Notes: generated by a model not told the origin, from the letters alone. 64,000 nt of DNA from Candidatus Borrarchaeum weybense (GCA_019057385.1 JAHQJS010000003.1:32001-96000), one strand, 5' to 3'. Counted from the stretch's first letter, positions 21,508 to 64,000 are shown. A program made the numbers and translations.

Positions 21508-21581
21508 TCAGTTTGCTCAAAGATAGATATTTATAAAAGAATTTAATCAGTTTATACAAAACTTGATAGTTTGCCCAGAAG

Positions 21582-27546: not shown

Positions 27547-28800
27547 TTACCCCTCAGGCGGTTTTTTCTTCTCGTGCATTCTCTTTCCCTTGCCTTTCTT
27601 TTTCTTCTTCTTTTTCTTTTTCTTTTTTGCTTTTACTTCTTTTCTTACAGGTGGAGAGGGATATTTTTTCTCAATCTCTTCAATACGCTTCATAATTTCG
27701 ATAACTAATTCGTCTCCAATAAACTCGCCTGCGTAAGCATCTACTCTTGCTGCTATCGTTAGCTTTCCAGCTATCGCTCTTGCTATTTTACCTCGCAACC
27801 ACCACTTAGCATTGTGAATCTCAGGTTTCTGAAATAATACACCATGTTTCGGAGGTTTACTCCCAGTTTTAATGGCTCTAAATAGTGCTTTCTCCGCACC
27901 TAGGACTTGAACTGTGCTAGCGGGAAGACGTGCTAGTTCAAGAAGACCTCCTGCAATGCTAATAATTCGAGCCCCTAGTAGTGCGCCGACTATTGCAGTC
28001 ACATTTGGCGCAACTTCACGCATTGTAGTTTCAATATAGTGCTCACTTTCTTTCCTGACTTTGTATAAGTCATCTGTAATTCGTGCAAACTTAACAAGCG
28101 ATTCTAGATCTGCTTCATCCATTTCTGCTCCAATTGAGTTTTTAACATAACCCTCTATCTCTTTTGCCTTGTCTAAAGGTACGCCTGTTATTCTTTGAAT
28201 TTCCGAAACTAAAAAGCGATCGCGTGGACCCAATGCTCCTACTAATCCAACATATATTTCGTGATTTTCGACTTTATCCAATTCTGGAAAATGAAGACCA
28301 TACCATTCTCGGATTCGAGTTGAGAATAAATTTAACGTTTGATCGATATCATCTATAGCTTTAATCGCTTGTGCAACCATTTTATCTCTTCGTTCAGAGG
28401 CACGCTTTATCTTCTTTTGTGATTGCAGCAAACCTACTGATTGTAATATAAACTGGAAGTTATTGATCCCTTCTTCTTTTGCTATACTGAAGGACTGTTC
28501 ACGAAAATTTTTGAATATTGAATTTCCTTTTTCAGTTAACGTTTGAATATCAAATTGCTCCTGAATATTCCTTGCTAGTTTTTCGTCTTCAAGGACGATT
28601 TCTTGAACCTCTTTTTGCTTTAGTACACCTAGAACATCTTTTAATTCGTCAATAAGTTGTCCTGATTGAAGAAGTTCAATTTTTTCTACAATTTTCTCTG
28701 GCGTACTTGGAAAAAGCGCACGATAAATAATTTCGCTATTCTCATCGACCCCATAGATTCCTGCAACATTCTCCACAATATATGCACGTATTGATGTCAT
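27547..28800 (-). CDS. nop5: Nop5/Nop56 box C/D RNP protein
   Basis: EWYGLHFPEL, STVQVLGAEKALF, PKHG, GKIAR, Lys-rich tail. Confidence 0.95.
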   Translation of the reverse strand: MTSIRAYIVENVAGIYGVDENSEIIYRALFPSTPEKIVEKIELLQSGQLIDELKDVLGVLKQKEVQEIVLEDEKLARNIQEQFDIQTLTEKGNSIFKNFREQSFSIAKEEGINNFQFILQSVGLLQSQKKIKRASERRDKMVAQAIKAIDDIDQTLNLFSTRIREWYGLHFPELDKVENHEIYVGLVGALGPRDRFLVSEIQRITGVPLDKAKEIEGYVKNSIGAEMDEADLESLVKFARITDDLYKVRKESEHYIETTMREVAPNVTAIVGALLGARIISIAGGLLELARLPASTVQVLGAEKALFRAIKTGSKPPKHGVLFQKPEIHNAKWWLRGKIARAIAGKLTIAARVDAYAGEFIGDELVIEIMKRIEEIEKKYPSPPVRKEVKAKKKKKKKKKKKGKGKRMHEKKKPPEG

Positions 28801-29089
28801 TCAGATCCCATCTTCTATTATTAAGTTTTTAAGAACTTAATAGAATATCACGTATCTTTTGTATCTACTGGATTTTATTTCTCACGAGAAAATAAGGGTT
28901 TTTTCACCATTTTAATGTTTTTCCAAAAACTTATTTATCCTTTTAGAAAGCAATACTTGTTTATAATTCGAGAGAATAAATTATCTTATTCTAAATTATA
29001 TTTCACAATAGTGGGAGCGTAAAATATTTCTAGAAATTTGATTTCAAGAAATGTGTAGATACTCAAATGCGTTAAGAAGGAACTAATAA

Positions 29090-30445
29090 ATGATAGTCAC
29101 AGATTTGGTAAATTTAGCAAAAAAATCGGTCAAAATATTTAACGAACATGTTATTAAGGAAAACCTAGAACCACCAATGAGAGCCTATATTAGAGAATTT
29201 CCTACTAAATTTGAATTAACCGAATCAGGACACAGTTGTGGATTTTCAGGAGAAATAGTTCATAAACCGGACTGGTCTATGATAATATTTAATTTCATAG
29301 ACAAAATCAAAAAAAAGCCAGCCTTCGCACAACTTGCTCAATCAATTGCAGCAAGATATAAAAAGAACATCCAAGATCTGGCCGAAGGGTGCAATGAGTT
29401 AGCACAAGTCACTTTTTGGTTGGAGCGATTTATTCAGAAGATAATTTATAATAATTTAGATAAAGAACTTTCAGAAAATCAAATTATAGAATATGCTGTA
29501 TTGTTTAATTCTGATCTTGAATTAAATCCTTCAGAATATAATTACACTTTCTATTTAAACGGTATTTTCTTAGAATGTGAATCGGTAAAGATTAATGATA
29601 ACGTAATCATTAGAAAACCGCAAAAAGAGGATTTTGAATATACTAGAGATATTTTCTTCGATATTCCAAGACATCATCATATTAGAATTCCTTCATCAAT
29701 ACTGGAAATGAATATGATCGCTAAAGATAACAAAGAATGTAGAGCCTACGCCAATAGAATACTTAACGCATTAAGGCTATATAAACTGGGTTCAATTTAC
29801 CCTATTAATCAGATTGAAACTAGAAAGTCTATCATTTGGGGAGGTTCTCAAATAAGTTGGAATGGAAATTATACTTCCATCAAAAATTATACTGTAAATG
29901 AAACTGAACTTAAAGATTTTATTGATATTGTTATTGAAATTGAACAGAAATTGAATTTTAACAAAAAAGAAAAGAAAAATTGGGGGCTCCTTATTTCTCT
30001 TGAAAGATACAACTCTGCTCTTCTAGAATCTTTAGATATTGATCGAAAAGTAATGACTACAATTATGGGATTAGAATCTTTATTTTCTCTTGAAAAGGAT
30101 AGGGGCGAAAATGCGTATAAATTGGGCGTTAGAGTTGCGAAGTTACTCGGATTTATGAGACCGGATATTGAAGAAGTAAGAACATTGATAGAAAGTGGGT
30201 ATAAATTCAGAAATGATGTTGTTCACGGTATGTATATTAAACAAAACCAAAGAGAGAAAATGGAAAAAAACCTCCTGAAACTTCTCGACTATCTAAGAAT
30301 GTCTTTAATATTTTTTCTGATAAATCAACAACAAGGAAAAAATAAGTTAGTTGACATAATCGATAAATCACTAATAAGCGACAATTATGGCGAACAACTG
30401 AAAAGATTATTTCAAAACGGTATTATTATCTGTCCAAACATGTAG
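29090..30445 (+). CDS. ApeA/HEPN-like protein (putative RNase, defence cargo)
   Basis: C-terminal GLESLF...YKFRNDVVHG (RxxxxH); AT-rich island. Confidence 0.65.
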   Translation: MIVTDLVNLAKKSVKIFNEHVIKENLEPPMRAYIREFPTKFELTESGHSCGFSGEIVHKPDWSMIIFNFIDKIKKKPAFAQLAQSIAARYKKNIQDLAEGCNELAQVTFWLERFIQKIIYNNLDKELSENQIIEYAVLFNSDLELNPSEYNYTFYLNGIFLECESVKINDNVIIRKPQKEDFEYTRDIFFDIPRHHHIRIPSSILEMNMIAKDNKECRAYANRILNALRLYKLGSIYPINQIETRKSIIWGGSQISWNGNYTSIKNYTVNETELKDFIDIVIEIEQKLNFNKKEKKNWGLLISLERYNSALLESLDIDRKVMTTIMGLESLFSLEKDRGENAYKLGVRVAKLLGFMRPDIEEVRTLIESGYKFRNDVVHGMYIKQNQREKMEKNLLKLLDYLRMSLIFFLINQQQGKNKLVDIIDKSLISDNYGEQLKRLFQNGIIICPNM

Positions 30446-30550
30446 AAATCTCTAATAGATGAGTTTGAGTTATCTTAAATTTCAAACGACTCAGTTGAGC
30501 AAAAATAGATAATAATTAGTATAGATGTTTAAAATAAGTTAGTGGTATGA

Positions 30551-31612
30551 ATGGTATCTAAGATTAATCACTTTACCGATGCAGGAGAACTGTTTAGAAG
30601 ATTGGATACAATAGAAAGATTCCCAAATGTGCCTATTAAAACGGTATTGTTCATCTATGATTTCAGGTACAAATTATTAGACATCTTAGATAGAATAACA
30701 CCCCAGGAATATCAAAAATCGTCTTATAAAATTAAATTTGAAAACGATGATGTTGTCTTGTTAGATGTGAAGATCGTAAAAGATTTAGATATAATTTCAA
30801 GTGATAGGAGAAAAGTATTTCTTATAATAGATAAGAATAAGCCATTTTGTATTTTGATTACAAATTCTGAGGGAAATTATTTCAAAAAAGTATTATCATT
30901 TTTCAATAAACATTATCCGCTATTATCAAGAATTTTTTTACGCTCAAATGAAATAAAAGACTTATTAAACTATCTAGAGGAAAAAGAAGAAGCGAAGTTG
31001 ACCGTTTTAAGTTATGTTGTTAAAAGATACTATGTAAGGCCAGAGACAAGAATTGCCTATGAGAAAATCAGTTTTAGAGAAGTCTTTGATAAGGCATCAG
31101 ATGATTTTCTTTGGGTAGATAGTATTTATTTAGCAATTGAAAAAAGATCCAAGAGTAAAATTAGGATAAATAGACGAGGAGTCATATCATATTATAGGAA
31201 TTTAGATTATTCAAATATTCATTTGATTCTTATCTCTCAAATTCTTATTAAATACTCAAAAATATATACAAGTATCCTAATGGAAAGATCGAGAAGTCTT
31301 GAAAATTTAGAACCCCGACCAGTAAGGTTTTTTATAAACGAAGACGTCTTCAATTCATCAGAAGATATCGATAGGTTCTTAGAAGCTTTGCATAAATATT
31401 TGCTTAATTGGGGATATTCAACATTATTTAAAGAAAGAAACTACCTTTATCTCATACTTCACGATTATCAAACAGGTTCAAGTTACGATATTTTGATCAG
31501 TTCTCCTTATGAAATATTTGTTACTCCACAAACTCAAGTTACGAGCATTTCTTTTGGCGCTCTAGTCAACTTTCTTGTTGATAATTATGATGGAGTTGTT
31601 GAAAATGTCTAA
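30551..31612 (+). CDS. Hypothetical protein, coupled to the next gene
   Basis: 353-aa ORF in island. Confidence 0.7.
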   Translation: MVSKINHFTDAGELFRRLDTIERFPNVPIKTVLFIYDFRYKLLDILDRITPQEYQKSSYKIKFENDDVVLLDVKIVKDLDIISSDRRKVFLIIDKNKPFCILITNSEGNYFKKVLSFFNKHYPLLSRIFLRSNEIKDLLNYLEEKEEAKLTVLSYVVKRYYVRPETRIAYEKISFREVFDKASDDFLWVDSIYLAIEKRSKSKIRINRRGVISYYRNLDYSNIHLILISQILIKYSKIYTSILMERSRSLENLEPRPVRFFINEDVFNSSEDIDRFLEALHKYLLNWGYSTLFKERNYLYLILHDYQTGSSYDILISSPYEIFVTPQTQVTSISFGALVNFLVDNYDGVVENV

Positions 31613-32705
31613 AGATAATAATGAAGAATTAATGAGATTTAGAAAAATAGATATCAGCAACTATATCAAAGCGCTAAAATCTCTGATATGTTTAAGGAAA
31701 ATGATTATAAACGAGTTATCAGGTGAATTCTATTTTGGTAGTAAGTTAAATTACAAAAATAAACAAGGAGATCCTCAAACACCTGACTTTATTACAAAAC
31801 TAAGCAATACTGCATGGATAGGAGAGCTTAAAAGATCGCTTCCTGAACCTAAAAATTTTACTTCTGAAGAAGAATATGTCGAGAAAATTGTAGAAAAACT
31901 TATCGAACAGTTGCAAAAATATGATGAATCTTTTAAGGAATTAGATTCTTATCAGCATGATATTATACTAATGACTCCATCATTAGCAACAGATGCAATA
32001 GGCGTTTTGAAGTTTAAGTATCTAGAAAAAGAGAATGTCAATAATCTGTTTAAACACAATTTTGCACTTCTTCTTTATACACTTGAATCAGGAGCAAATA
32101 ATACCGAGTTCATATACATTAAATTGGATTATGGAACTATTACTGATAAGAAGGCTACAGATATTTTAAAAGTTGGTTACAAAAAGGTTTTAGGAGAATT
32201 AAAAGAAGATTTAGCGAAATTTAAAATATATGAAGAAAGTAAACAAACACCTTTTGAATATGTAATGGTTCTGCTTTGGACACAGATATTCCCTGAGATA
32301 ATCAAAAAAAGTCGTGTAGAGAAGATAATCGAATGGAAAGACAGGAAGGAACACATATTCGAAGTAAAATTAGATGAGTTAATTGAATATCTACATAAAA
32401 TGTATACATTGCCATCTTTGAGTGCAACTGACAAAAAGCAATTTACAACCAAGATAATACAGAAAGCCATGACTATGTTTTCAAAGGTTAAAATTAAAAG
32501 TGAAAGAACTAGAAAACTCGAACCTTTGGTTACGTATGGTGAAAAAGACGGTTCTATGGTATTTAGAGTGGTTTATAAAAAACTTCGGGAGAAGAAAGAA
32601 TTGGACTTCATTCTTAAGTCGATTTATTTGGAACAAGGTGAAATTGAAGACAAGGAAACTCAAAGAGAATTAATTAATTATCCACGATTAGATACATGGT
32701 TTTAA
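31605..32705 (+). CDS. Putative PD-(D/E)xK nuclease-domain protein
   Basis: TPDF...WIGELKRS...QLQKYD; start taken at ATG 31605. Confidence 0.55.
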   Translation: MSKDNNEELMRFRKIDISNYIKALKSLICLRKMIINELSGEFYFGSKLNYKNKQGDPQTPDFITKLSNTAWIGELKRSLPEPKNFTSEEEYVEKIVEKLIEQLQKYDESFKELDSYQHDIILMTPSLATDAIGVLKFKYLEKENVNNLFKHNFALLLYTLESGANNTEFIYIKLDYGTITDKKATDILKVGYKKVLGELKEDLAKFKIYEESKQTPFEYVMVLLWTQIFPEIIKKSRVEKIIEWKDRKEHIFEVKLDELIEYLHKMYTLPSLSATDKKQFTTKIIQKAMTMFSKVKIKSERTRKLEPLVTYGEKDGSMVFRVVYKKLREKKELDFILKSIYLEQGEIEDKETQRELINYPRLDTWF

Positions 32706-32936
32706 AATTTTAAATAAAAAGTAGTTATAAATTGATTCGCTGTTCTGTTAGTTATAGCGAGAGAGTTCTTTTTCCATAATTTTCTATACTAAAAACCGCT
32801 TAGAACAATTTTTTCAAAGAAAGGAAGTCAACTATACACCCATTTTATTAGAGGAGATGGGAAAACCTAATTTTTTTGATGGGTTTATAAATCTAGTTAT
32901 AGAATGTATAAATGAGATTATATCGAGGTTGGAAAT

Positions 32937-33758
32937 ATGAGAAAAACAAAAAAACTGATGATGATTCATGCCTATACTCCCATTGCAAAACCGATCAACA
33001 CCTCTGTTCAAAAAAATTCAACCATGCTGTTGTTAGGTCAAATTCCCTACGAAAACGGGTCAAAAATATTCACTACTAAGCTTTATTATATCAAAGGATT
33101 ACGTGGAATGCTAAGACATGCCTGTATGAGCCTTGCTCAGGATTGTAGTATCGAGGTGTGTCATACCAGCGAAAAAACTGAACTCAAAGACGGTACAAAG
33201 GTGACTCCCTCAGGGTTTCATCCACTGGGTGAATGTGAACCTCCATGCATCCTCAAAAGAATTTTTGGTACATTTCGCGAGGAGTCCTCAATATCTGTCT
33301 TGTCAGATCCTATAGCTTCTATTAAGCACAAAGAATTTACCACTGAAGTTCCTGTGCAAAAGGTACATATCGCTAGCGAATATAGAATAGCGAAATCGTT
33401 CACGGGTATACCTATTCAGGACTTCAAGGAATCGTATTTCTCAGGGTATTTTAGTTTCTGTATTGATGTAACTGAATTAACTGACTATGAAATCAAGTTT
33501 CTCATGGAATCTCTACTCTACATTGAAACACTTGGTGCTGGTAAGCGTTCGGGTTATGGACGTATCAAAATTATTAGTTTCGAGTTTCAGAAGGTTGAAA
33601 TTACCAGAAAGATCGACCGCGAAAATGGAAGTTATAAAGTTGTTGAGAATGAGTCGATAACGCCCTTAGAACTCGATGATATCGAGAGTTGGAGGGATTC
33701 AATACCTTCATGGACACAAGGCACGCAAGATGGTATGCTACCTGTTCTTAACGAGTAG
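32937..33758 (+). CDS. cas7: Divergent Cas7-like RAMP (locus A)
   Basis: IKGLRGMLRH, Cys cluster CH...CEPPC, IFG, G-rich loop LGAGKRSGYGRI; close paralog of 61174..61983. Confidence 0.8.
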   Translation: MRKTKKLMMIHAYTPIAKPINTSVQKNSTMLLLGQIPYENGSKIFTTKLYYIKGLRGMLRHACMSLAQDCSIEVCHTSEKTELKDGTKVTPSGFHPLGECEPPCILKRIFGTFREESSISVLSDPIASIKHKEFTTEVPVQKVHIASEYRIAKSFTGIPIQDFKESYFSGYFSFCIDVTELTDYEIKFLMESLLYIETLGAGKRSGYGRIKIISFEFQKVEITRKIDRENGSYKVVENESITPLELDDIESWRDSIPSWTQGTQDGMLPVLNE

Positions 33759-33932
33759 CACGTTCTTGTGCATGAGACTGCTCATCTATAAAGGTCTGAC
33801 GCCTTTGATGAGGAGGGATGACTCGCAGGGGACGATAAATGTCGTAAACATGTTTATGAGTTTACTAAGTCTATCGACTAACCTTGCAAAGCCTCTCTTA
33901 AGCGATGGCAAGTTAAACGCTTGTCATCGCTT
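33731..33932 (+). ncRNA. Putative guide RNA 1: scaffold 33731-33843, guide ~33844-33889, hairpin 33900-33932
   Basis: Scaffold shared with 59913-60028 and 61025-61139; 33865-33889 matches pyrD 34041-34065 (24/25). Confidence 0.7.
33900..33932 (+). terminator. Hairpin after guide 1
   Basis: AAGCGATGGCAAG/CTTGTCATCGCTT stem (one G-U), followed by T-rich tract. Confidence 0.55.
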
Positions 33933-34037
33933 CCATTTTATCCTATTGTTTCTTCTATACTTCTTCAGAAAAAGTTAAGAAGTCTAATATAAAAGTAAGA
34001 GTTAAGATAAACGAATGAAAGTGAAGTTTAGATTTTT

Positions 34038-34982
34038 ATGCTAACTCTATCGACTAACCTTGCAACATTACAACTTAAGAATCCTGTTATGTTAGCTGCT
34101 GGAGTTCTCGGTATTTCGGGACCAGTACTTAAACGGGTAGCGAATGCCGGTGCGGGTGCGGTTGTCACAAAATCTATCGGTCCTGAGCCCAGAGAAGGTT
34201 ACAATAATCCAACAGTCGTTCCTTTAAATGAATTTAGTTGTTTGAATGCTGTTGGGCTTTCAAACCCTGGGTATTTAGAGTTTTCCAAAGAAATAATTTT
34301 GGCAAAACAAGAAAACGTTCCAATAATTGTTAGTATATTTGGCGCAGATATTGATGAATTTTGTACAATTGCGAAGAAAATGGAAAAGAGTGGTGCTGAT
34401 GCACTTGAACTTAACCTTTCATGTCCTCATGGAGGAAAATATGGTGCATCTATCGGACAGGATCCACAATTATCAGGTGAAATTGTATACGCCGTAAAAA
34501 ATACCGTGCAGATCCCTGTTTTTATTAAACTCACACCAAACGTGACTGATCTGATTCCTATTGCAAAAAGTGCTGAAAATAATGGTGCCGATGCTATTAC
34601 TGCAATCAACACAGTACGCGCTATGTGCATAGACATTGAAACTGGGCAGCCCTTATTATCAAACGCGTTTGGAGGGCTTTCTGGGCCTGCAATAAAACCA
34701 ATCGCAATCAAACATATTTATGATCTCTATAAAGAAGTAGGGATCCCTCTTATCGGTGTGGGTGGTATTGTTTCTTGGGAAGATGCAATAGAATTCTTTC
34801 TTGCTGGAGCTACTGCAATTCAAGTAGGGACTGGGCTTCTGCGGACATCATTCCTAGACATGTTTAATGAATTAACCGAAGGAATTCTAAGTTATCTCAG
34901 AAGAAAAGGCTATACTCGTTTAGAAGAAATCATTGGACTTACTCATAGACTTAAATCTTATAGGGGATCTTTACACGAGTAA
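34038..34982 (+). CDS. pyrD: Dihydroorotate dehydrogenase B catalytic subunit
   Basis: KNPVMLAAG, LNAVGLSNPG, ELNLSCPH, KLTPN, GGLSGPAIKP. Confidence 0.95.
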   Translation: MLTLSTNLATLQLKNPVMLAAGVLGISGPVLKRVANAGAGAVVTKSIGPEPREGYNNPTVVPLNEFSCLNAVGLSNPGYLEFSKEIILAKQENVPIIVSIFGADIDEFCTIAKKMEKSGADALELNLSCPHGGKYGASIGQDPQLSGEIVYAVKNTVQIPVFIKLTPNVTDLIPIAKSAENNGADAITAINTVRAMCIDIETGQPLLSNAFGGLSGPAIKPIAIKHIYDLYKEVGIPLIGVGGIVSWEDAIEFFLAGATAIQVGTGLLRTSFLDMFNELTEGILSYLRRKGYTRLEEIIGLTHRLKSYRGSLHE

Positions 34983-36329: not shown

Positions 36330-39300
36330 ATGGATTTTAAAAGCGAAATGCAATTTTTTTTCAATTTGCGTGACCTAACAGCACGAAAAGGGAAAATACA
36401 TAATATACTCTCTCAATTAGAAAAAATGCAACAAAGGAACGATCCAGTCATCAGTTTAAACATGGCTGAAGCACTTATTGAAAATTGCTTATTAATTGAC
36501 AACGATGAAGATCGTCTACAACATTACAACCGAGCACTTGAACTAGTTCAGATTGCACGTCTTATTTTGAAAGAAAAAAGCCAGACGAGGCTGCTTCTAC
36601 GATCATACCATCTTGAATGCTTTATAAAGTACCATACCATGAAATACAGAGATGAAGAAGCTTCTATTCTCGACATCTTTAATTTGGGTGGGAAAATCAT
36701 CAAAAGAGTAACACAGGCCAAAACAAACGATCCATATACGGAATATGATGACTACTGTTCTTTAGGCTGTGTTTGGCGTGCCTACGGACTCATGTCGCAA
36801 CTTATCCATAAATTTCAGAAATTAAATGTTGAACAAAGACGCGATATGTTAGAGAACGCTAGAGCATTGACACATAAAGCTGTAGATGCGAGTAACAGTA
36901 CAAATAACAGAGATGCAAACGTTTTGTCAGCTTATATTTTTGCTTTTGTCGAAACGTCACAAATGGTTCTACGTGGTGATAAAGCTACTACTGAAAAAGA
37001 TTTTATTAAAATTATAGGCCTTTACGATGTCTTGTTTGAGGCTGCTCACTCGTATGGCTCAATCGAGTTCGAATATTTGGCTTTATTAAACCATACACGG
37101 TTAAATTTATCACGCTATGCCTACACAATAGGGACAAATGAGGAAAAAAGAGAGTTACTCCATGATATATTGAATGATTGTAAGAAACTAGAAGAATACA
37201 ATAACTTAATTCGAATGCCACACTTCCTGTTTTATTATTATACCGTGCGAACTGAAGCCTACTTAAGTTTCCTTTATTTTGAAGTTTTTAGTGAAAAAGA
37301 ATATAACTATTACGTTAACAAAGCTTTAAAATCTGCAGAAAAACTGAAGTTCGTATACGAATCTAAAGATATGATAAGCGAACGCGATAAAATTGACTTA
37401 CATCATAACCTTATCTTTGTATATATGATGACCGCGTCTTTCGCCACTTCACAAAAAGAAAAACATGAATATTTGAAAAAATGTGAGGAATTACTTCTAG
37501 AAGATGAACAAAGTACAGCTGTCTGGTCACAGAGAGCGTACTCCATTTGGCGTGATCTTTCTTCAATTTACTTGGACCTTGCAAAAGTCGAGCGTAATCA
37601 TATATATTTCGAAAAATGCGTATTCTATGCAAAAAAGGCATACTATTCAGCGCTGGAAACTGAGGTCTTCACAGACGCGTTTTTTGAAGCATATAAAATT
37701 GCCATGATCGCTGAAAGTTTCCAGAAGCATAATTTGTCTATAAAGCATTATAATTTAGCCCTTCAGTTGTTAGCCAAAATAATTCAGGCAGGGAAAGATT
37801 ATCCGTACTATAGAAATTTAGAAACCTATCTATCAGCTCGGTTGCTGGGCGTAAAAGCTAAGGAAGAACATCGTAAAGGTAGTTATATACAAGCTACGAA
37901 CTTATATCGCGAAGCAAGTTCTATTTTGCGACCAAATAAGCTTTATTTATATGAAAGCCTACTGTATAACATTTACGCGTTATTTGAAGATGCGTCTACA
38001 CGTTTTATAGAGGAAAAATATAAGGAAACATTTACCATTCTTTCTAATATTACCTGCTTATTTGATGAAACTGCAAAACACTATGCTGAAGATTATAAAC
38101 CCCAATTTCAGTATTTTATCGATAGACGCGCTTATGATCTACAACTTGATTATTTCGAATCTTCAAAGACTTTTTGCCTTGCTCAGTCGAATATTTTACA
38201 GGCATTAATTTATCGTAGTACTGGAGACAGTGAGAGATCAATAAAGTTGCTAAAGGAAGCCAATACTCTACTCAAACCATTTACAGATCGAAATATTCAC
38301 ATAGCAGGCTATTCTTCATTTGCAAAAGGACTATACGGACTTGAAAAATCCGAACTTAACATAAGAAACGGTGAATATAAACGCGCAGCATCATATCTTG
38401 CAAATGCATCTGATCAATTTGAAACTGCATCAAAAGTGTTAGCATCTGACGAACAACTAAGACAGTTATGTGATGGACTAAAATTCTTTTGTCGGGGATG
38501 GATGAATACTTTAGAAATTATGCGCCGTGACATAGACCATAGCACCACAGAATTGCATACTAATTTTACTCTCGCTAGTCAATCTTTCGTAAATGCAACC
38601 AGATCCTTGAAAATGTTCAAGAAGACGTCCAAAGGAGTTTCTGGATTCGAGAAATTATTGAGTTATATCTATTATTCATTATTATTCCAAAAAACTGATG
38701 ATCTTGCAGAAAAAAGCAAGTTTAAGGATAATATGACTGCAGTGCTAGGTGAGGCACTGCAATATTTTAAAGACGCTGAAGATATGGAACGATATAGGTT
38801 TACAAAAGATATAATCACTACACTACTTCAATTGGAAGATATACGCGAAAACATCTTGAAACCCATTACCATACCATTTACACTATATACACCAATATTT
38901 GACTCTACGACTATAGTCGAGCCCAGTAGCGTAAACATTGCAATATCACTTGATAAGGATCAAGTAGAGGTTAATGACGAAATACAGTACACAATAGAAA
39001 TCAATTCCGATAATTCAGTCTATATGAAACAAATTGATGGTTTGATCCCAAAAAAAGGTGTAAAAGTGGTCTCAAATTCGCAATTGGCAAAGAACGGTAC
39101 GATAGAAATAAATCGCTTTTTATCTCCTGGTAATCCAATAAAAATTGAATTCCAAGTTCAGGCATCCACACCGCTTCATAACAAAGCACATCCACGATTA
39201 TTATATCTCAACACAAAAAACGAGAAATGCCGCGCTTTTACATTGCCTCTTACGTTACAAGTGTACCCCAAAAATGCATTAAAATCTGGCGTGGTATGTA

Positions 39301-40217
39301 CAATCAATGAAAAAATCAATCTAGTGAAGGGTATTTTGAAGGAACTAGGAATCATCCTAGGGGAATTTCCGGTCCTATACCATGACATTAATTCATATCG
39401 CGAAGCTTTAGCAGAGTATTATTTCCGTTATAAAACCGACGAGGGTGGGAAGAAGCACCGTTCAAAAAAGACAGACATTTCCAAGATCCCAATACAACAG
39501 ATGGCTTTTGTAGACCCTCTTGGTGAAGTAAATATCCTTTATGATCTGGAGACATATCTCTATCCGCAATCTATTGCGAATCTTCTGGGCATTATCATAC
39601 ATGAAAAATTCGGTCATGGTTTCTTTCAACAGTATACATCATTAGGGAAAAAATTGCTAGAACTGGAATACCACCAAAAAGGTGTAGAATTACTTATGAA
39701 AGAGCTAGAAAAAATATCAAATAAGTATGCTATGGGGATTCAATGGCTTGCCGTTTCTACATTGATCGTCGATGAAGGGTTCGCAACTTGGCTAGAGTTA
39801 AAGACTTTCGAAAAACTGCTTGAAAAAATATCAGATAAAGATTCACAGTTTATTCAACAGATACATCACGAGATAGAAAGTTTCAGAAAAACGGTATTTG
39901 AAAGCGAAGAACTCAATGTGAAGCATGAGTATTTTGCCTTAAAATATGAGAAGACTGTTATCAATCCTTACGCAGAAGGATACGATTTGTTCTCACAAAT
40001 TGAAGAGAAATACGGCGAAAAGTGCGTACCGAAAGCATTAGAAATCGCTGCAAATGTCCCCTTGACAAAGCGACAGATCTCTCTTATGCCAAATACGATA
40101 AAAAATGATAAAACCTGTGCTGATAAAAGATTAGAAAAAATAGCGTGCTCAGATCTCAAAATAGAGCGAAACAATGTTGATATGTTTGAGAAAGCTGCCA
40201 AGGAATTGTTTTTGTAA
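36330..40217 (+). CDS. 1295-aa helical-repeat (TPR-like) protein with beta-rich domain and C-terminal HExxGH metallopeptidase-like domain
   Basis: Repetitive helical pattern; IIIHEKFGHG...DEGFATW...NPYAEG. Confidence 0.6.
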   Translation: MDFKSEMQFFFNLRDLTARKGKIHNILSQLEKMQQRNDPVISLNMAEALIENCLLIDNDEDRLQHYNRALELVQIARLILKEKSQTRLLLRSYHLECFIKYHTMKYRDEEASILDIFNLGGKIIKRVTQAKTNDPYTEYDDYCSLGCVWRAYGLMSQLIHKFQKLNVEQRRDMLENARALTHKAVDASNSTNNRDANVLSAYIFAFVETSQMVLRGDKATTEKDFIKIIGLYDVLFEAAHSYGSIEFEYLALLNHTRLNLSRYAYTIGTNEEKRELLHDILNDCKKLEEYNNLIRMPHFLFYYYTVRTEAYLSFLYFEVFSEKEYNYYVNKALKSAEKLKFVYESKDMISERDKIDLHHNLIFVYMMTASFATSQKEKHEYLKKCEELLLEDEQSTAVWSQRAYSIWRDLSSIYLDLAKVERNHIYFEKCVFYAKKAYYSALETEVFTDAFFEAYKIAMIAESFQKHNLSIKHYNLALQLLAKIIQAGKDYPYYRNLETYLSARLLGVKAKEEHRKGSYIQATNLYREASSILRPNKLYLYESLLYNIYALFEDASTRFIEEKYKETFTILSNITCLFDETAKHYAEDYKPQFQYFIDRRAYDLQLDYFESSKTFCLAQSNILQALIYRSTGDSERSIKLLKEANTLLKPFTDRNIHIAGYSSFAKGLYGLEKSELNIRNGEYKRAASYLANASDQFETASKVLASDEQLRQLCDGLKFFCRGWMNTLEIMRRDIDHSTTELHTNFTLASQSFVNATRSLKMFKKTSKGVSGFEKLLSYIYYSLLFQKTDDLAEKSKFKDNMTAVLGEALQYFKDAEDMERYRFTKDIITTLLQLEDIRENILKPITIPFTLYTPIFDSTTIVEPSSVNIAISLDKDQVEVNDEIQYTIEINSDNSVYMKQIDGLIPKKGVKVVSNSQLAKNGTIEINRFLSPGNPIKIEFQVQASTPLHNKAHPRLLYLNTKNEKCRAFTLPLTLQVYPKNALKSGVVCTINEKINLVKGILKELGIILGEFPVLYHDINSYREALAEYYFRYKTDEGGKKHRSKKTDISKIPIQQMAFVDPLGEVNILYDLETYLYPQSIANLLGIIIHEKFGHGFFQQYTSLGKKLLELEYHQKGVELLMKELEKISNKYAMGIQWLAVSTLIVDEGFATWLELKTFEKLLEKISDKDSQFIQQIHHEIESFRKTVFESEELNVKHEYFALKYEKTVINPYAEGYDLFSQIEEKYGEKCVPKALEIAANVPLTKRQISLMPNTIKNDKTCADKRLEKIACSDLKIERNNVDMFEKAAKELFL

Positions 40218-58872: not shown

Positions 58873-58995
58873 TATGAATTAAATCTTATCGTTAGTTCTT
58901 TCATCAATATAAGATAACTTAGTTTGATTCTTACCGTTCCTTTCATAATAGACATCTATTACAGCGAATAGTGTCTATCCACCCACGATAAGAAC

Positions 58996-59266
58996 ATGAG
59001 TGGAGGGCCCGCTAGGACGGTTAAGCGGGATACCTACCGCCATATAGGGTGCAGGCCTTGCGTGAACGAAACGATGATTTATTATCAGCGTTCCCGCAGA
59101 ATCGACGGCGTACGGGAGTGCTGGGCTGAAGTCCGTGAAGTGGTCCCGGGGCGAATGCTTAAACCTCCGGGTGCCTCATCTTACCATCAATTCTCACTTA
59201 TATACTGGAGGACCTGCTTTATAAACACCACGCCTCACGCGTTCACTGTGGAACCCCTTGCCCGCG
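58996..59266. ncRNA. Unidentified GC-rich structured intergenic RNA candidate
   Basis: GC-rich stretch in AT-rich DNA with several hairpins. Confidence 0.35.
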
Positions 59267-59304
59267 AAAGAATCGTCTATATTTGTCTATAAAATAAATA
59301 ACTG

Positions 59305-59595
59305 TTAATCACCCTCTTGTAACTTTTGTTTGATCACAAAAACTCGTATTTTTTCCTCTGCAATTATAAGTGTATCATTGATGGATTTAATTACAGAATG
59401 AGGAATTAAAATTGTTCCTTTCTCATCGCGCGGAAATTTTTCAATATCTGGATGTTTAGTAGGCTTCACACACACCGCTAATAGGTGGCCATCTCGCGAA
59501 TTAATTATGAAATCAACTACCTTTCCCATAGCAGAACCTTTTTCATCAGTTACAGAAATACCAACTAAGTCCCGGATATCGATGATTTCCGACAT
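59305..59595 (-). CDS. PRC-barrel domain protein
   Basis: DLVGISVTDEKGSAMGKVVDF...ILIPHSVIKSINDTLII. Confidence 0.85.
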   Translation of the reverse strand: MSEIIDIRDLVGISVTDEKGSAMGKVVDFIINSRDGHLLAVCVKPTKHPDIEKFPRDEKGTILIPHSVIKSINDTLIIAEEKIRVFVIKQKLQEGD

Positions 59596-59846
59596 TTTTC
59601 ATCCCATCAGACCTTGCATGAGTCGGTCTATGTTAAATCAATATTTTTTGCTATTAATATCATCTGCTTCGAGTTATAAATTAGTCAAGTCATATTGACA
59701 GAACCTTTTCAAAAAGCAAAAATGAGAGTAGAATTGGAAAATTCAAAATTCGATTCAATAAATCTCGAATGAAAAGTGAAAACTAAAGAACGCTGTGCAA
59801 TTATCTTCGTTTAAATCATACAAAAGTCTATCATAATGCAGGAAAT

Positions 59847-60028
59847 AGGAGGGAATAATCCCTCCTTATCTAATATTTACAGGAATGCCGATTAAGTCGC
59901 GGATATTTTTTTGACATTTTTCGTCCCCTGCGAGTCATTCATTCCCAACAAGTGAGGCGTCGGACCTCTAATTTGGTTCAGTCTCATGCACAAGAACGTG
60001 TCCCCCGTGATATACGAAGAACATTCCG
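59847..60028 (-). ncRNA. Putative guide RNA 3: scaffold 60028-59913, guide ~59912-59875, hairpin 59866-59847
   Basis: Scaffold copy; 59906-59877 matches PRC-barrel gene 59579-59550 (25/30); perfect AGGAGGGA/TCCCTCCT stem. Confidence 0.7.
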
Positions 60029-60061
60029 CCTTGTAACTCATTAAACCTCTTGAAAAGAGTC

Positions 60062-60069
60062 TATATAAA
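60062..60069 (-). promoter_or_regulatory. TATA box for guide RNA 3
   Basis: TTTATATA ~34 nt upstream of the scaffold, just after the cas5-HD stop. Confidence 0.5.
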
Positions 60070-60091
60070 CACCGCGATTCAAAACAAAGAT

Positions 60092-60919
60092 TCATTCTTG
60101 CCATGTATACAAACCACTCTTCAAGTCATCAAGATAGAGATTTACCATAAGGAGTAGGTGATTTTTTAAAGATGAAAAGCCAAATTTTAGCGCTTCGCTG
60201 ATCTTATCAAACGCTTGACATTTTCGAATATAAGTATAAAGAGCATAAGGGGAATATTGACGCCTTTCTATCTCTATTTTTAATACATCGAAATCAATTT
60301 TTTCTAATTCTGTCACACGATAACGAGAGGACGCTGACCATCTAAATTTTCGAGAAATCATTGCAGATAGTCGGTCATAATGTTGTAATAAATAAAGCCA
60401 AAGAAAATCTTTTTCATCTATATCATAATTGTGATGATTCTTTGCAAGTTTGAAGACATCTTCGTCAGCTATATCAACATCAGTATAAATTTTACTTGGA
60501 TGTCGATCAGTGCCTACAAAATCATGCAGGAGCATTGCTATAATTAACTTTTCCTGCATATCTGAGAGTTTAGGAAGTTTCTTACGAATCTTAATTCTTC
60601 TTGTAGTATAGAGAGGCTTTTTCTTGAGTTTTTTGAGAGAAGTCCAAAAGATTCGTCCCATCCCCTCACATGTATAACTTCCAACACTATCAATAGCAAG
60701 TGCTTCTTCAAGTTTATGTTCTGAAACGATAAACTCAATATTACCAAACCACGCCCTAAAGGTCATTGGCGCACGTCTTTGTCCTACCGTTAATTTTCCG
60801 AATACCCTGGGACGACCTTTTATGGTCATCGCTCCAACGTCGGTAACTCCAAAATGTCTACGCTTTGAAACAATAGGAGTTTTTGTATAACCAATTAATT
60901 TAAAGTATTTCTGTGGCAT
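60092..60919 (-). CDS. Cas5-like RAMP fused to permuted HD nuclease domain
   Basis: N-terminal YFKLIGYTKTP and G-loop GSYTCEGMGRI; LLHD...NHH...YDRLSA...SLKNH. Confidence 0.7.
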   Translation of the reverse strand: MPQKYFKLIGYTKTPIVSKRRHFGVTDVGAMTIKGRPRVFGKLTVGQRRAPMTFRAWFGNIEFIVSEHKLEEALAIDSVGSYTCEGMGRIFWTSLKKLKKKPLYTTRRIKIRKKLPKLSDMQEKLIIAMLLHDFVGTDRHPSKIYTDVDIADEDVFKLAKNHHNYDIDEKDFLWLYLLQHYDRLSAMISRKFRWSASSRYRVTELEKIDFDVLKIEIERRQYSPYALYTYIRKCQAFDKISEALKFGFSSLKNHLLLMVNLYLDDLKSGLYTWQE

Positions 60920-60944
60920 TTTATTCCCTCTTATAAGATTTTAC

Positions 60945-61139
60945 CTCCTCTTTGAACAAAAGAGAGGAGATATAAACCTTGCCAAAGTAAACACGTTTGC
61001 AACTGTTGTTTGTAAAGTGGGTATGACATTTTTCGTTCCTTGCGAGTCATCCGTCCCCAACAATTGAGGCGTCGGACCTCTAAGCTGGTTCAGTCTCATG
61101 CACAAGAACGTATCACTCACATCAGTAAGTGATAAACCG
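60945..61139 (-). ncRNA. Putative guide RNA 2: scaffold 61139-61025, guide ~61024-60970, hairpin 60969-60945
   Basis: Scaffold copy; 61021-60970 aligns to cas7 promoter 62071-62019 (7 mismatches, 1 gap). Confidence 0.72.
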
Positions 61140-61173
61140 TAATGAGATGAGAAAAAAAGTTGAAATAAATGTG

Positions 61174-61983
61174 TCACACAGCCACCTTCTCATCCTGTTT
61201 ACTCATAGTATTCAAAGAAGTTCTCCAATCCTCGATTTTACTTAGAGAAAGCGGAATTTCAGTGGTTTCTTCTATAATTTTATAGTTTCCTTCGCTATCC
61301 TCTTCGACTCTTCGAAAAGTCTCAACCTTCTGAAGAGCAATATTAAGGATTTTGACGCAACCATATCCACTTGACCGTCCTGCCCCAAGAATTTCTACGT
61401 AGAGCATTGCTTCTATAAGAAACTTGATTTCAACATCAGTTAGATTAGTGACATCAATTTGAAAGGAAAAAAATCCACTGAAATAACTCTCACGAAAGTC
61501 TTGGATGGGAGTACCATCATAGGCAAGCGCTATTCTGTTTTCACTAGAGATGTGGACATTTTGAACTGGCACTATTGTTATAAAATCTTTGTGTTTAATC
61601 GAGGCAATAGGGTCTGCTGCGACAACAATAGAGGACTTTTCACGGAAGGTGCCAAAGATTGTTCTGAGAATACAGGGAGGATCGCATGTACCAAGCGCAT
61701 GAAATCCTTGCGGAAGAACACTTTTACCATCTTTAAGTTCAGTTTTTTCAGAACTATGACATACTTCGATGTTGCAGTCTTGAGCAAGTTCCATACAGGC
61801 ATGTCTTAACATCCCTCGGATACCTTTAATGTAATAAAATTTAGTATTGAACGTTTTTTCTCCATTCACATAAGGAAATTTCCCTAACAAGAGCATGCTA
61901 GAATTTTTCTGAATCGAGGCATTGATAGGCTTTGCTATGGGTGTAAAGGCGTGAACAACTATCTGGTTTTTGATTTTTCTCAT
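61174..61983 (-). CDS. cas7: Divergent Cas7-like RAMP (locus B)
   Basis: IKGIRGMLRH, CH...CDPPC, IFG, LGAGRSSGYGCV. Confidence 0.8.
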   Translation of the reverse strand: MRKIKNQIVVHAFTPIAKPINASIQKNSSMLLLGKFPYVNGEKTFNTKFYYIKGIRGMLRHACMELAQDCNIEVCHSSEKTELKDGKSVLPQGFHALGTCDPPCILRTIFGTFREKSSIVVAADPIASIKHKDFITIVPVQNVHISSENRIALAYDGTPIQDFRESYFSGFFSFQIDVTNLTDVEIKFLIEAMLYVEILGAGRSSGYGCVKILNIALQKVETFRRVEEDSEGNYKIIEETTEIPLSLSKIEDWRTSLNTMSKQDEKVAV

Positions 61984-62017
61984 GTTTCCAACCTCAAATA
62001 TATTTAGTACAAGTACC

Positions 62018-62090
62018 TATATAAACCTTGCTCAAAATAAACACTTTTTCTACTCTTGTTAGTAAAATGGGGTTTAAAATGACTTCCTTT
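62018..62090 (-). promoter_or_regulatory. cas7 promoter (TATA TTTATATA 62025-62018); homologous to 32821-32890; matched by guide 2
   Basis: AAGGAAGTCA...CCCATTTTA...GGTTTATA...GAGGTTGGAAA-n-ATG upstream of both cas7 copies. Confidence 0.65.
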
Positions 62091-62326
62091 TTAGAAATAA
62101 AGTATTTTAAACAGGTTTTATGTGAAAAACCATTGTATGTTTAGAACCTGATTTATAAATCACAATGTAACATTCAATTTACATCATCATTTTTTTAAAA
62201 GAATAGTTGTTTGATTTAACAAAATTAAGTTTCTTCGGGAATTCAAAAAGAGTACATTGATGGTATCAACTAAACTAAAAATCGTTCGAAAAAAATAATT
62301 GTTCCATTGATGGTTGCTAATAAAAA

Positions 62327-64000
62327 TTAGGGCAATAGATCTTTTACTGTAACTGGAGGACCCTTTTTCTGTGGTTTATAGATGCCTTCTAAATGTTGGA
62401 ATCTTTCAAACATTAAGTGGAGAGTTTCCTTATCTGGAGCGTAAATAAAGGGGATGAATCGCTTATTTTCTAGCAAAAAATCCTTGAGTTGTACTGCACA
62501 CTGCCTTAAAGCCTCCATTACTGTCATCTTCTGTTCAAGATAGTATATTTCTTGATTGAGTATATCATCAACTAGTCTCTCAACTTTGTAGTGTCCATTC
62601 CATGTTAGGTGATAGAATTGTTCGTGTTCAAGCGTTTTACGCTTCTTGAAATCAGCTTTTGTAAATTCACCATACAAACATGCTAAAATTAGGGTGAGCC
62701 TGAACAAGGGAATAAACATTTCTCGAAAATCAAAGATAGTGCCTAGAAAGGAGCGTTGGGTTTTTTTAAAGTGCAGTATCAGTTCATCCGGTACCCAAGA
62801 AAATCCTACTTCAGCGAGTGCTTTTCGACAGTAAAGGTTAAGATGACGATAAACAGCATTGAGTGCAGCACTAAAGGGTGTACGTGCTTTTACTTCTCCT
62901 AAAAGGACAACGGTGGAAATATAGCGTTCTAGGGTACGACTAATGATCTCAAAGTAGGTTCCTCTTAGCAAACGTTTAGGGATTTCCCAGGCAACTCCTT
63001 CAACTAAGCCTTCAAACCCACGGAGGTTGTCAATATTACCCCTCCAATAGAGAAAAGTATATGCTACTCGATCCAGCAATTTAGATAAGAGCTCTTGAGC
63101 ATTTTCAGCAGATAACAACCCCTCTTTTTCAACTTGGAGTACTGAATTGGCTAGACCTATATCTTTACTTATTGTCAGAAGCCATGCTAGCAATTTGCCT
63201 CGTTCTGTTCCTCTGATTCGCTGAGCGGCATATTTCAGTTCGTCGGCTACCTGTTGTTTCTTTGGAGTTAGTTTATTTTGTGCAAAGAAACTACCTTTTG
63301 GTGTATTTGCATCAATGAGTTTCTTGCTATATTTCTTACGAATGTATTGCGATATATCGCCACCTTCAATGATGATATTACGGATAGCACCGACTAAATA
63401 CCGTTTTGTTTCTCTTCCGTCTTTTAGTGTATGAACAAATCGTTTTTTTCTAATATCGAGCCTTTCATTACACTTGACACGGATATTTCGTTTTGGTCTT
63501 CTGATATAGACCTTTGTCTTTTTAACTCTCTGAACATAATTCCCGGGCTTACCTATAAGCAGTTCTAAATTTGTTTGCAATACATCACGATAACCCGGTT
63601 TTATTACAAGTTCACCATTAACGGTCAAATGATAACTGGAATTGCATTCAGGACAGACTGTATATTCCATATATGAGGACGGTAATTCCACAATGCCACG
63701 AGGTTTACAGTTTAAACATGTAATGCTGCCATTTGTTTCTTGCAATATTCTTATTTTACGTTTTTTTAACCTTTGAACATTTTCGTGATGTTCGCATGCA
63801 CTCTTCCTTGGTGTGGCGTAAGGATTTCTTGCTCGTTTTCCTACTTGTTTGTTTAATTTGCAGTTTAACACACAAACATGTGCATGTTTCGATCTTCGAC
63901 GGTCCTTTATAGGGTTTATCTGAATGAACTTACAAGATCCACAGGTGAGCCGAAGATGTTCAGGAATACTTGCGTTCACATCAGCTACATAGATTTTGGG
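62327..64000 (-). CDS. cas1: Large divergent Cas1 with N-terminal Zn-finger-like motifs (5' end outside window)
   Basis: LRGFEG, PFSAALNAVYRHL, ALAEVGF...ILH, IFDFREMF follow the Cas1 E/H/D-E catalytic motif order; several CxxC pairs; frame open to window edge. Confidence 0.75.
   Translation of the reverse strand, partial: PKIYVADVNASIPEHLRLTCGSCKFIQINPIKDRRRSKHAHVCVLNCKLNKQVGKRARNPYATPRKSACEHHENVQRLKKRKIRILQETNGSITCLNCKPRGIVELPSSYMEYTVCPECNSSYHLTVNGELVIKPGYRDVLQTNLELLIGKPGNYVQRVKKTKVYIRRPKRNIRVKCNERLDIRKKRFVHTLKDGRETKRYLVGAIRNIIIEGGDISQYIRKKYSKKLIDANTPKGSFFAQNKLTPKKQQVADELKYAAQRIRGTERGKLLAWLLTISKDIGLANSVLQVEKEGLLSAENAQELLSKLLDRVAYTFLYWRGNIDNLRGFEGLVEGVAWEIPKRLLRGTYFEIISRTLERYISTVVLLGEVKARTPFSAALNAVYRHLNLYCRKALAEVGFSWVPDELILHFKKTQRSFLGTIFDFREMFIPLFRLTLILACLYGEFTKADFKKRKTLEHEQFYHLTWNGHYKVERLVDDILNQEIYYLEQKMTVMEALRQCAVQLKDFLLENKRFIPFIYAPDKETLHLMFERFQHLEGIYKPQKKGPPVTVKDLLP

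Follow-up and report, generated by a model that had tools for sequence, protein, structure and literature searches.

A candidate mobile Asgard RAMP element with putative self-programmed guide RNAs in Candidatus Borrarchaeum weybense

Genes and RNA units of the locus

We analysed a 64,000-nucleotide stretch of the genome of Candidatus Borrarchaeum weybense (hereafter the window). A sequence-only reading had described on its minus strand the order cas1-like gene, cas7-like gene, RNA 2, cas5-HD gene and RNA 3, and our gene calls and scaffold positions agree with that order. The features of this locus, and of a second island in the same window, are as follows.

62327-64000, minus strand: helicase-Cas1 gene, 3' portion with the Cas1 domain; its ORF is cut by the window edge
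62019-62071, minus strand: cas7 promoter region, -88 to -35 from the ATG, with a TATA box at its end; twin of the RNA 2 tail
61174-61983, minus strand: cas7, a type III-like RAMP of 269 aa (Pfam RAMPs, 2.9e-6; PADLOC Csm3, 2.3e-8)
61023-61139, minus strand: RNA 2 scaffold (class A, between cas7 and RAMP-HD), 119 bits with the covariance model
60970-61022, minus strand: RNA 2 tail, covering positions 3-55 beyond the scaffold end; differs from its twin in the cas7 promoter at positions 8, 14, 20, 26 and 38
60943-60969, minus strand: hairpin read from the sequence, between the RNA 2 tail and the start of RAMP-HD
60092-60919, minus strand: RAMP-HD fusion ('Cas5-HD', 275 aa), residues 1-106 RAMP, residues 119-275 Cas10-type HD
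59911-60028, minus strand: RNA 3 scaffold (class B), 131 bits with the covariance model
59305-59595, minus strand: host PRC-barrel gene, with the element inserted in its original 5' part
28777-33851, plus strand: second island (three unknown ORFs, cas7b and RNA 1), absent between Nop5 and pyrD in G004, G001 and G003
32937-33758, plus strand: cas7b, 64% identical to cas7
33731-33845, plus strand: RNA 1 scaffold, after cas7b, 110.6 bits with the covariance model

The cas1-like ORF does carry a Cas1 domain, but it represents only the C-terminal 550 aa of a DEAD-helicase/Cas1 fusion of 1327 aa, whose full ORF reaches window-equivalent position 66310, beyond the window. The N-terminus of this protein is DEAD/Helicase_C, and its C-terminal part matched PF01867 Cas_Cas1 with E 2.7e-5 (23.9 bits against a cut-off of 22.3, profile positions 9-265 of 283); the paralogue P0088 matched the same profile at 3.9e-9. 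Cas7 also gave weak gRAMP/Csx7 matches. The predicted structure of RAMP-HD had a pLDDT of 87.8, and in a wide search with VIA-align its residues 119-275 matched 6ifk_A with Z 8.7, identifying a Cas10/Csm1-type HD domain with invariant HD residues. Residues 1-106 resembled Cas6, Cmr3, Csm4 and Csf chains (Z 6-7.9), scores that do not separate Cas5 from Cas6, and a Foldseek comparison of the model with the PDB returned weak RAMP rows only, with E at best 2e-3. All 84 of 84 named RAMP-HD homologues were from Asgard archaea (Borrarchaeum, Promethearchaeota, Heimdall- and Thorarchaeota). Pfam, PADLOC and structure comparison agree on the RAMP, HD and Cas1 identities given in the sequence-only reading. 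Other window genes are of archaeal or Asgard type (Rpb8/RpoG, Nop5, PAC2).

Asgard RAMP (ARAMP) modules (Makarova et al. 2020, CRISPR J 3:156, as summarised in PMC8730458 and PMC12669027) are array-less and type III-derived, and combine a diverged Cas7 and Cas5-like RAMPs with a nuclease and a distinct Cas1 in Asgard hosts; the earlier statement that such array-less modules were already known was right. Our locus has the Asgard host, a diverged Cas7 nearest to type III, a distinct Cas1 and, as had been noted, no CRISPR-like array or regularly spaced repeat family within the 64-kb window; of the Cas5-like RAMP with nuclease, both the RAMP and the nuclease are present, with RAMP scores compatible with either Cas5 or Cas6. 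The protein part of the locus is an ARAMP member. Two features set the locus apart from what is described for ARAMP: between its genes lie copies of a 118-nt RNA that continues into a variable tail, and the module is an insertion. The ARAMP passages of PMC8730458 and PMC12669027 describe no RNA component, which agrees with the earlier statement that no RNA was known for these modules, and likewise no mobility, target duplication or target.

Each RNA unit consists of a structured scaffold, a linker of ~8 nt, a variable segment of 30-50 nt and a terminator-like hairpin. Three such units had been proposed, including one after a second cas7, and all three were recovered with the covariance model at 110-131 bits, with a scaffold of 118 nt rather than ~115 nt. 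The scaffold pairing held in 95.8% of cells, in comparison to 44-54% when the partners were slid; helix 1 showed compensatory changes and helix 2 many U-G pairs, which would be C-A if the other strand were read. No known Rfam family was found at the scaffold sites. A true HEARO RNA was detected by Rfam elsewhere in the window.

The 4.18-Mb genome contains 24-25 scaffold copies at ~10 loci. The proposed search of Asgard genomes with a covariance model extended the scaffold to two genera of one class-level lineage, but gave no matches under strict filters in 55 other genomes of the phylum. No scaffold was found at the Heimdall/Thor ARAMP loci either, where the cas7 and RAMP-HD genes overlap and thus leave no space for an RNA between them. 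The suggested linkage to Cas7 holds for full modules, in every one of which class A copies are kept at an internal position, and the scaffold co-evolves with the RAMP proteins of its own locus. It does not hold for many copies that are solitary, some of which adjoin intact host genes, nor for genome G005, where ~29 copies form the right part of a MITE-like repeat of ~290 nt without neighbouring cas genes or a recognisable target duplication (own-flank scores were not above cross-flank scores).

Insertion boundaries and terminal tails

Genomes of the same genus have empty sites at the position of the module, which is therefore a 6.6-kb insertion in the PRC-barrel gene; its gene content is helicase-Cas1, cas7 and RAMP-HD only. 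Five islands found here have no counterpart in G004/G002, although the sites are otherwise collinear, and G004-specific insertions have matching empty sites in this genome. The right boundaries of four of the five islands lie 0-48 nt from a scaffold 3' end, and at the C4 339-kb island the last sequence absent from the empty site lies ~400 nt past the scaffold. At the PRC locus, the 3' end of the RNA 3 scaffold is the right edge of sequence common to paralogous module copies. These alignments show the last scaffold at, or within a few hundred nucleotides of, the right end of the insertion. Mobility of the module had no place in the sequence-only proposal for this locus. The right-hand junctions of the two insertions in the window contain a first target copy (T'), a segment X and a second target copy (T):

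59875-59906, minus strand: RNA 3 tail T', a copy of codons 11-21 of the host PRC-barrel gene in its original form (31/32 identical to the G004 empty site)
59847-59868, minus strand: hairpin after the RNA 3 tail, read from the sequence
59587-59874, minus strand: segment X of the PRC locus, absent from empty sites and genome-unique, with a hairpin at its start
59550-59605, minus strand: T of the PRC locus, second, diverged target copy, forming the new 5' end of the PRC-barrel gene
33852-33889, plus strand: RNA 1 tail T', 38 nt long, copied from the 5'UTR and first codons that pyrD originally had (36/38 against the empty site of G004)
33890-34040, plus strand: segment X of the pyrD locus, with a hairpin at ~33900-33932, promoter-like DNA and a new ATG
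34041-34065, plus strand: T of the pyrD locus, second target copy, at the present start of pyrD

All three unique segments had been said to match elsewhere in the window, and they do so at 62019-62071 (RNA 2), 59550-59605 (RNA 3, 75% over 56 nt) and 34041-34065 (RNA 1, 24/25); of 300 random genomic windows, none reached the score of the RNA 1 match or of the RNA 3 match. The end of segment X at the PRC locus carries a motif resembling a scaffold 3' end and supplies the present ATG of the PRC gene. The idea that X is a repeated mini-element was rejected, as the three X segments are unique. Composite junctions of the form [scaffold][T'][X][T] may represent a single element that contains a guide internally, or the remains of an older element to which a later insertion was added.

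Other loci gave further examples. In L068, a clean 38-nt duplication flanks a 1.1-kb element. At the C5 locus an internal extra RNA unit copies (32/38) host DNA that begins exactly at the right junction of the island, and in L069 the host DNA 19-46 nt left of the insertion reappears as the tail in reverse complement (27/28), an inverted arrangement that neither target duplication nor read-through can produce. As these alignments show, the terminal RNA (RNA 3, RNA 1) has a variable segment copied from the host target; in many cases this segment is the right-hand member of a 38-39-nt target duplication. Duplication lengths vary (7, 8, 22-33, 38-39 and 129-164 nt), and no left-side duplication of the module tails was found within 12 kb on either strand in this genome. 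Apparent guide matches of L064 and L108 in relatives were discarded, since they come from a tandem paralogous acyl-CoA-dehydrogenase-like gene that starts at the scaffold end. The left flank often ends in TTGA: this holds for the PRC insertion and perhaps for that at C6, and TTGA stands beside 8/10 G005 repeats, but it is missing at C5 and L069; we keep it as a target-adjacent motif only as a lead.

In simple insertions the terminal tail is flanking host DNA, and it would thus be present with or without a function. The expectation of genomic matches for the 3' segments was borne out for the internal (class A) tail in seven loci, whereas most class B tails have no further match in their own genome. 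Among class B mismatches, 12/26 fall in the six-nucleotide register described below and 7 in the half-period register; since the latter is also enriched, we do not claim a 6-nt periodicity for class B, and its in-register excess may reflect codon third positions rather than Cas7 geometry. In the resident second target copies, changes are mostly off-register (11/15).

The internal tail and the cas7 promoter

The RNA 2 segment and the cas7 promoter are 85% identical over 53 nt (BLAST E = 9e-11). In all seven loci with an interpretable alignment, the internal tail matched its own cas7 promoter with a score of 29-41, in comparison to 8-19 for the cas7 promoters of other lineages' loci; an eighth, weak class A scaffold (C4_1003) has a tail without a cas7 promoter match. 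Tail and promoter co-vary across four diverged lineages, and their identity within loci is 85-97%, although the Cas1 proteins of these loci are only ~35% identical. The substitutions between the two follow a strict pattern: 21/30 in the four lineages fall on positions 8+6k (P = 1.4e-10; 2.7e-4 in each of two single lineages) and only 2/30 in the half-period register. Mismatches at every sixth base are as expected for Cas7-bound guides.

The proposal that the RNAs are guides gains real support for RNA 2 from the co-variation and the 6-nt mismatch period, as far as comparison of loci can tell. It did not carry over in the same form to RNA 1 and RNA 3, which are not freely acquired but copy host DNA of the insertion site. 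The TATA box of the RAMP-HD gene, however, also forms the end of tail A, ~45-50 nt upstream of the RAMP-HD start codon; a duplicated promoter subject to gene conversion is therefore a partial alternative.

Guides, by-products or transposon ends

The balance of this evidence tilts, by a modest amount, towards a mobile ARAMP element with self-programmed guide RNAs. Such an element would carry two genes for a 118-nt structured RNA beside those for Cas7 and RAMP-HD, with the helicase-Cas1 fusion as its likely integrase. Cas7 and RAMP-HD would assemble on the scaffold RNAs as a small class 1 effector; RNA 2 would guide this complex to the cas7 promoter, resulting in autoregulation, and the terminal RNA would guide it to the element's own target sequence, where it could serve homing or retention at empty alleles, target immunity, or the direction of Cas1 integration. 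A stronger form, in which ARAMP as a whole would be a transposon with a Cas1-helicase that produces a class 1 guide RNA for itself, is tentative and in our opinion rather doubtful: on integration, ~38 bp of the target would be duplicated immediately after a resident scaffold gene, the transcribed scaffold-plus-target RNA would load the Cas7/RAMP-HD complex, and the complex would either find that sequence again at empty alleles, for homing or retention, or direct more Cas1 integration. Another guide, built into the element, would silence the element's promoter.

The main competitor, which we consider unlikely, is a mobile element whose scaffold is an RNA or protein-binding part and whose adjacent segments are mere by-products without RNA-guided recognition, class B tails being target duplications or flanks and the class A tail a duplicated promoter, kept similar by gene conversion or a shared regulator. 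The identity of tails with host flanks or 38-nt duplications, the TATA box at the end of tail A and the frequency of solitary scaffolds all suit it. However, neither gene conversion nor protein binding explains the 6-nt mismatch period of a non-coding promoter twin, the tail/promoter identity persists despite the divergence of Cas1, and the internal copies in L069 (inverted) and at C5 are neither flanks nor simple duplications.

Less probable still is that the 118-nt element acts as DNA, as a folded transposon right end recognised by helicase-Cas1 in the manner of the hairpin ends of IS200/IS605. The position of the scaffold at or near the right end of insertions and within the G005 repeat, which lacks a target duplication, and the frequent TTGA at the left flank would fit; the internal class A copies of full modules would not, a fold of several helices, with its long-range pairing and numerous U-G pairs, is more in keeping with RNA, and both the co-evolution with the RAMP proteins and the periodic tail/promoter pattern point to a Cas7-bound RNA. 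We regard as highly improbable a CRISPR-like defence with single guides taken by Cas1 from invaders, which would be the 'programmable' complex of the sequence-only reading in an immune sense, or a regulator of neighbouring host genes, in spite of the presence of Cas1, the lack of second genomic matches for most class B tails and the targets of RNA 1 and RNA 3 at starts of neighbouring genes. Every traceable tail is host DNA from the insertion site, the neighbour matches stem from target duplication (in L064 and L108 from the tandem paralogous gene), and the tails have the sense of the neighbouring mRNA and thus cannot pair with it.

The self-programmed element would share features with several known systems. 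OMEGA systems (IscB/TnpB with omega-RNA, IS200/IS605) also have a long structured scaffold at the transposon right end and a 3' guide formed by the adjoining DNA, so that each insertion programmes its own guide; there, a single RuvC effector and TnpA are used, whereas our element has no RuvC protein and would use a multi-subunit Cas7/RAMP-HD complex, with helicase-Cas1 as the putative mobility enzyme and long target duplications. Tn7-like CASTs with homing guides are likewise mobile elements that carry a nuclease-poor class 1 effector, and their guide matches the chromosomal DNA next to them, but the three genes here include no TnsA/B/C or TniQ, there is no CRISPR array, and the distance from guide match to element end is not fixed. 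CreR and the long-form tracrRNA of Cas9 (ref. 21 in PMC8730458) are guide-like RNAs of cas loci that partly match their own promoter; here the match covers ~50 nt with a strict 5+1 pattern, and a 118-nt scaffold replaces the CRISPR repeat. In common with casposons and CRISPR adaptation, Cas1 is the sole candidate integrase and a target stretch is duplicated on integration, like the CRISPR repeat at spacer insertion; by contrast, the element has no PolB or Cas2, its Cas1 is fused to an SF2 helicase, and the duplication is ~38 nt rather than 14-15 nt. Reading of the junctions revealed no terminal inverted repeats there. Type III CRISPR-Cas differs from the locus, which has no array in the window and in which no other large ORF of the element matched the Cas10 Palm/cyclase domains, the HD domain of Cas10 being present alone, on a 275-aa protein.

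What appears to be new is an ARAMP module that is an insertion and carries scaffold RNAs whose variable ends copy the insertion site or the module's own promoter; an ARAMP element with its own long-scaffold RNAs is likely to be a new kind of RNA-guided system. Both ARAMP and HRAMP, its relative in haloarchaea, are textbook examples of enigmatic CRISPR derivatives: they have Cas7, Cas5 and even Cas1, but, to our knowledge, lack an array and have no described RNA. A scaffold-plus-guide RNA of their own, if true, would explain how they find their targets, and would be the first known class 1 effector with a long single-guide-type RNA in place of array-derived crRNA. The 5+1 mismatch pattern is a concrete, testable prediction, and a small, putatively programmable DNA-binding system of three proteins may interest tool builders. 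Mobility, target duplications of ~38 bp and target-copied guides would tie a Cas1 integrase to RNA-guided recognition outside CRISPR immunity, a link that bears on how adaptation modules and effectors first joined. If confirmed, the element would be a multi-subunit counterpart of OMEGA systems and possibly a living link between Cas1 transposons and CRISPR adaptation.

Genes of the module

On the minus strand, the ORF cut by the window edge is followed by cas7, a 275-aa RAMP-HD ORF and a host PRC-barrel gene.

Genes and predicted scaffold RNAs in the window
62327-64000, minus strand: helicase-Cas1 ORF, cut by the window edge
61174-61983, minus strand: cas7 (Pfam RAMPs 2.9e-6; PADLOC Csm3 2.3e-8)
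61023-61139, minus strand: RNA 2 scaffold, after cas7 (covariance model)
60092-60919, minus strand: RAMP-HD, 275-aa ORF
59911-60028, minus strand: RNA 3 scaffold, after RAMP-HD (covariance model)
59305-59595, minus strand: host PRC-barrel gene
32937-33758: cas7b, second cas7
33731-33845, plus strand: RNA 1 scaffold, after cas7b (covariance model)

In the genome, the edge ORF reaches a full length of 1327 aa, with DEAD/Helicase_C domains at its N-terminus and a C-terminus that matched Cas1 (PF01867) above the gathering cut-off over almost the full profile; a paralogue matched the same family with 3.9e-9. The RAMP-HD protein has 84 homologues, every named one from Asgard archaea, and its residues H132, D133, H140, H162, H163 and H254 are invariant. 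Its structure was predicted with confidence (pLDDT 87.8) and comprised an N-terminal RAMP domain, matched by Cas6, Cmr3, Csm4 and Csf chains at Z 6-7.9, and a region (residues 119-275) that aligned over 143 residues with the Cas10/Csm1 HD domain (6ifk_A; Z 8.7, rmsd 3.3). The gene set is an array-less Asgard RAMP (ARAMP) module. Published accounts present ARAMP as derived from type III, with its own distinct Cas1 and a mechanism called 'enigmatic' (PMC8730458, PMC12669027); no description of an RNA component was found in the literature searched.

The window also holds a HEARO RNA (Rfam RF02033, 116.8 bits; 21582-21802, plus strand), the omega-RNA of IscB/IsrB-type elements, with short direct repeats directly upstream (21502-21571). 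This site is a second RNA-guided mobile element, unrelated to ARAMP. A 1295-aa ORF (36330-40217, plus strand) matched no Pfam family.

The predicted scaffold RNA and its distribution

The sequence-only reading had described each RNA as a scaffold, a unique segment and a hairpin, and this anatomy, like its gene order, proved right. With the covariance model that we built, the three scaffolds scored 110-131 bits; Rfam contained no known family at their sites. The genome carries 24-25 copies in about 10 loci, six of them with a helicase-Cas1 (32-73% pairwise identity). When 22 copies were aligned, 95.8% of cells were paired, in comparison to 44-54% with the partners slid, and compensatory changes were present at four pairs of helix 1. 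Helix 2 is long-range and rich in U-G pairs, which establishes the cas-gene strand as the RNA strand. Scaffolds situated between cas7 and RAMP-HD form class A, and those behind the RAMP-HD gene or a lone cas7 form class B; a hairpin of variable sequence is located 45-95 nt downstream of nearly all copies.

The covariance-model search of Asgard genomes suggested with that reading detected scaffold copies in four genomes of the genus, in one from a different family within the class, and in 0/55 other genomes of the phylum; none was found at the Heimdall and Thor ARAMP loci. In the scaffold-bearing genome G005, the scaffold recurs about 29 times as the right-hand portion of a sharply bounded ~290-nt repeat that has no cas genes nearby, and in the same-genus genome G004 one lone partial scaffold is the remnant of a whole-module deletion. 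Other lone scaffolds adjoin intact host genes (G000:C4:1262884-1263003 in this genome, L064 and L108 in relatives); there, the gene starts at or in the scaffold 3' end, which resembles a ribosome-binding site plus ATG. This genome also has another, divergent ARAMP type (G000:C5:80663-82259), in which the cas7 and RAMP-HD genes overlap (39% and 34% identical to the window's versions) and which, like the Heimdall locus L144, is without scaffold RNA.

Insertions and their target copies

The window module is an insertion. In the sister genomes G004 and G002, the PRC-barrel gene is unbroken and continues directly into DNA found left of helicase-Cas1 in this genome. The 6.6-kb insert, bounded by window 59907 and window-equivalent 66503, interrupted the original gene behind roughly its first 10 codons; sequence common to paralogous modules ends on the right at the scaffold 3' end. 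The 32 nt behind the scaffold (59875-59906) are original codons 11-21, identical to G004 at 31/32 positions. Next comes a unique 288-nt segment with a hairpin at its start and a motif resembling the scaffold 3' end, the source of the new ATG, at its end, and then a second, more diverged copy of codons 11-21, with which the present gene begins.

The pyrD locus follows the same pattern. Nop5 adjoins pyrD in the same-genus genomes G004, G001 and G003; in this genome the two are separated by a 5-kb island that terminates in cas7b and RNA 1. Behind the island come 38 nt from the original start of pyrD (36/38), a unique 151-nt segment and the second copy. The tails of RNA 1 and RNA 3 are copies of the element's own integration target, not acquired spacers. 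Three more islands are missing from G004/G002: a simple one at C6, with plain flank as its tail; one at C5, where an extra internal scaffold bears a 38-nt copy (32/38) of host DNA starting exactly at the right junction; and one at C4 (339 kb), where a 35-nt copy behind the scaffold and the second copy have 356 nt of unique sequence and 129 nt of duplicated host DNA between them.

Conversely, the sites of G004-specific insertions are empty in this genome. The L068 element, 1.1 kb long, shows a clean duplication of 38 nt of target, and the copy behind its scaffold matches the empty site at 38/38. At L070 the target is present three times (target, element, target, unique segment, target). The L069 tail matches, as reverse complement (27/28), the host DNA that lies 19-46 nt to the left of where the element inserted; the end duplication is only 7 nt. 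Tail copies extend over about positions 9-46 behind the scaffold.

A 377-nt stretch (58934-59310) with a 98-aa ORF (58996-59292) has no counterpart in the collinear regions of G004 and G002, and many sister-genome contigs carry further copies of its first ~130 nt; the stretch is probably a small mobile repeat. A dispersed ~320-nt repeat (L064:646-970 in G004; about 20 places in this genome, e.g. C3:99118-99436) has one copy just left of the ARAMP insertion, outside the window, between the insertion and the LPG-synthase gene. Low G+C (29-32%) marks the left portion of the pyrD island (28777-32705), which holds three ORFs (451, 353 and 376 aa) of no Pfam family, the third with a weak PADLOC HEC-02B match; the island's left end supplies a new Nop5 start codon (MTSIRAY vs MKRAY).

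Class A tails and the cas7 promoter

Class A tails matched the region -90 to -35 upstream of their own locus's cas7 in 7/7 loci with interpretable alignment; for the eighth class A scaffold, the weak C4_1003, no tail-promoter match was found. Local scores were 29-41 within and 8-19 between lineages, whose Cas1 proteins are only ~35% identical to each other. Over four lineages, 21/30 tail-promoter substitutions fell at positions 8, 14, 20, 26, 32, 38, 44 and 50 (P = 1.4e-10; two lineages taken singly gave P = 2.7e-4 each), and every other register held ≤2. In type I, III and IV structures, the guide on the Cas7 backbone pairs in 5-nt segments with every sixth base flipped out. Selection for Cas7-type pairing would leave just such a 6-nt period in a non-coding twin, and neither a promoter nor a gene-conversion process known to us would yield it. 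The earlier guide-RNA proposal has gained strength for RNA 2, by its promoter-matching tail and mismatch register.

In class B, 12/26 mismatches lay in the same register (P = 4e-4). The half-period register held 7, so that codon third positions may explain this enrichment, and we did not count it as support. In the resident second target copies, 11/15 changes were off-register, which, small as the numbers are, would fit escape from self-targeting.

In the most coherent model, the Cas1-helicase of a mobile element would serve as its integrase, and the insertion itself would programme its scaffold genes, as happens in OMEGA transposons. A further, built-in guide would act as a repressor at the element's own promoter, similarly to CreR and the long tracrRNA in CRISPR systems.
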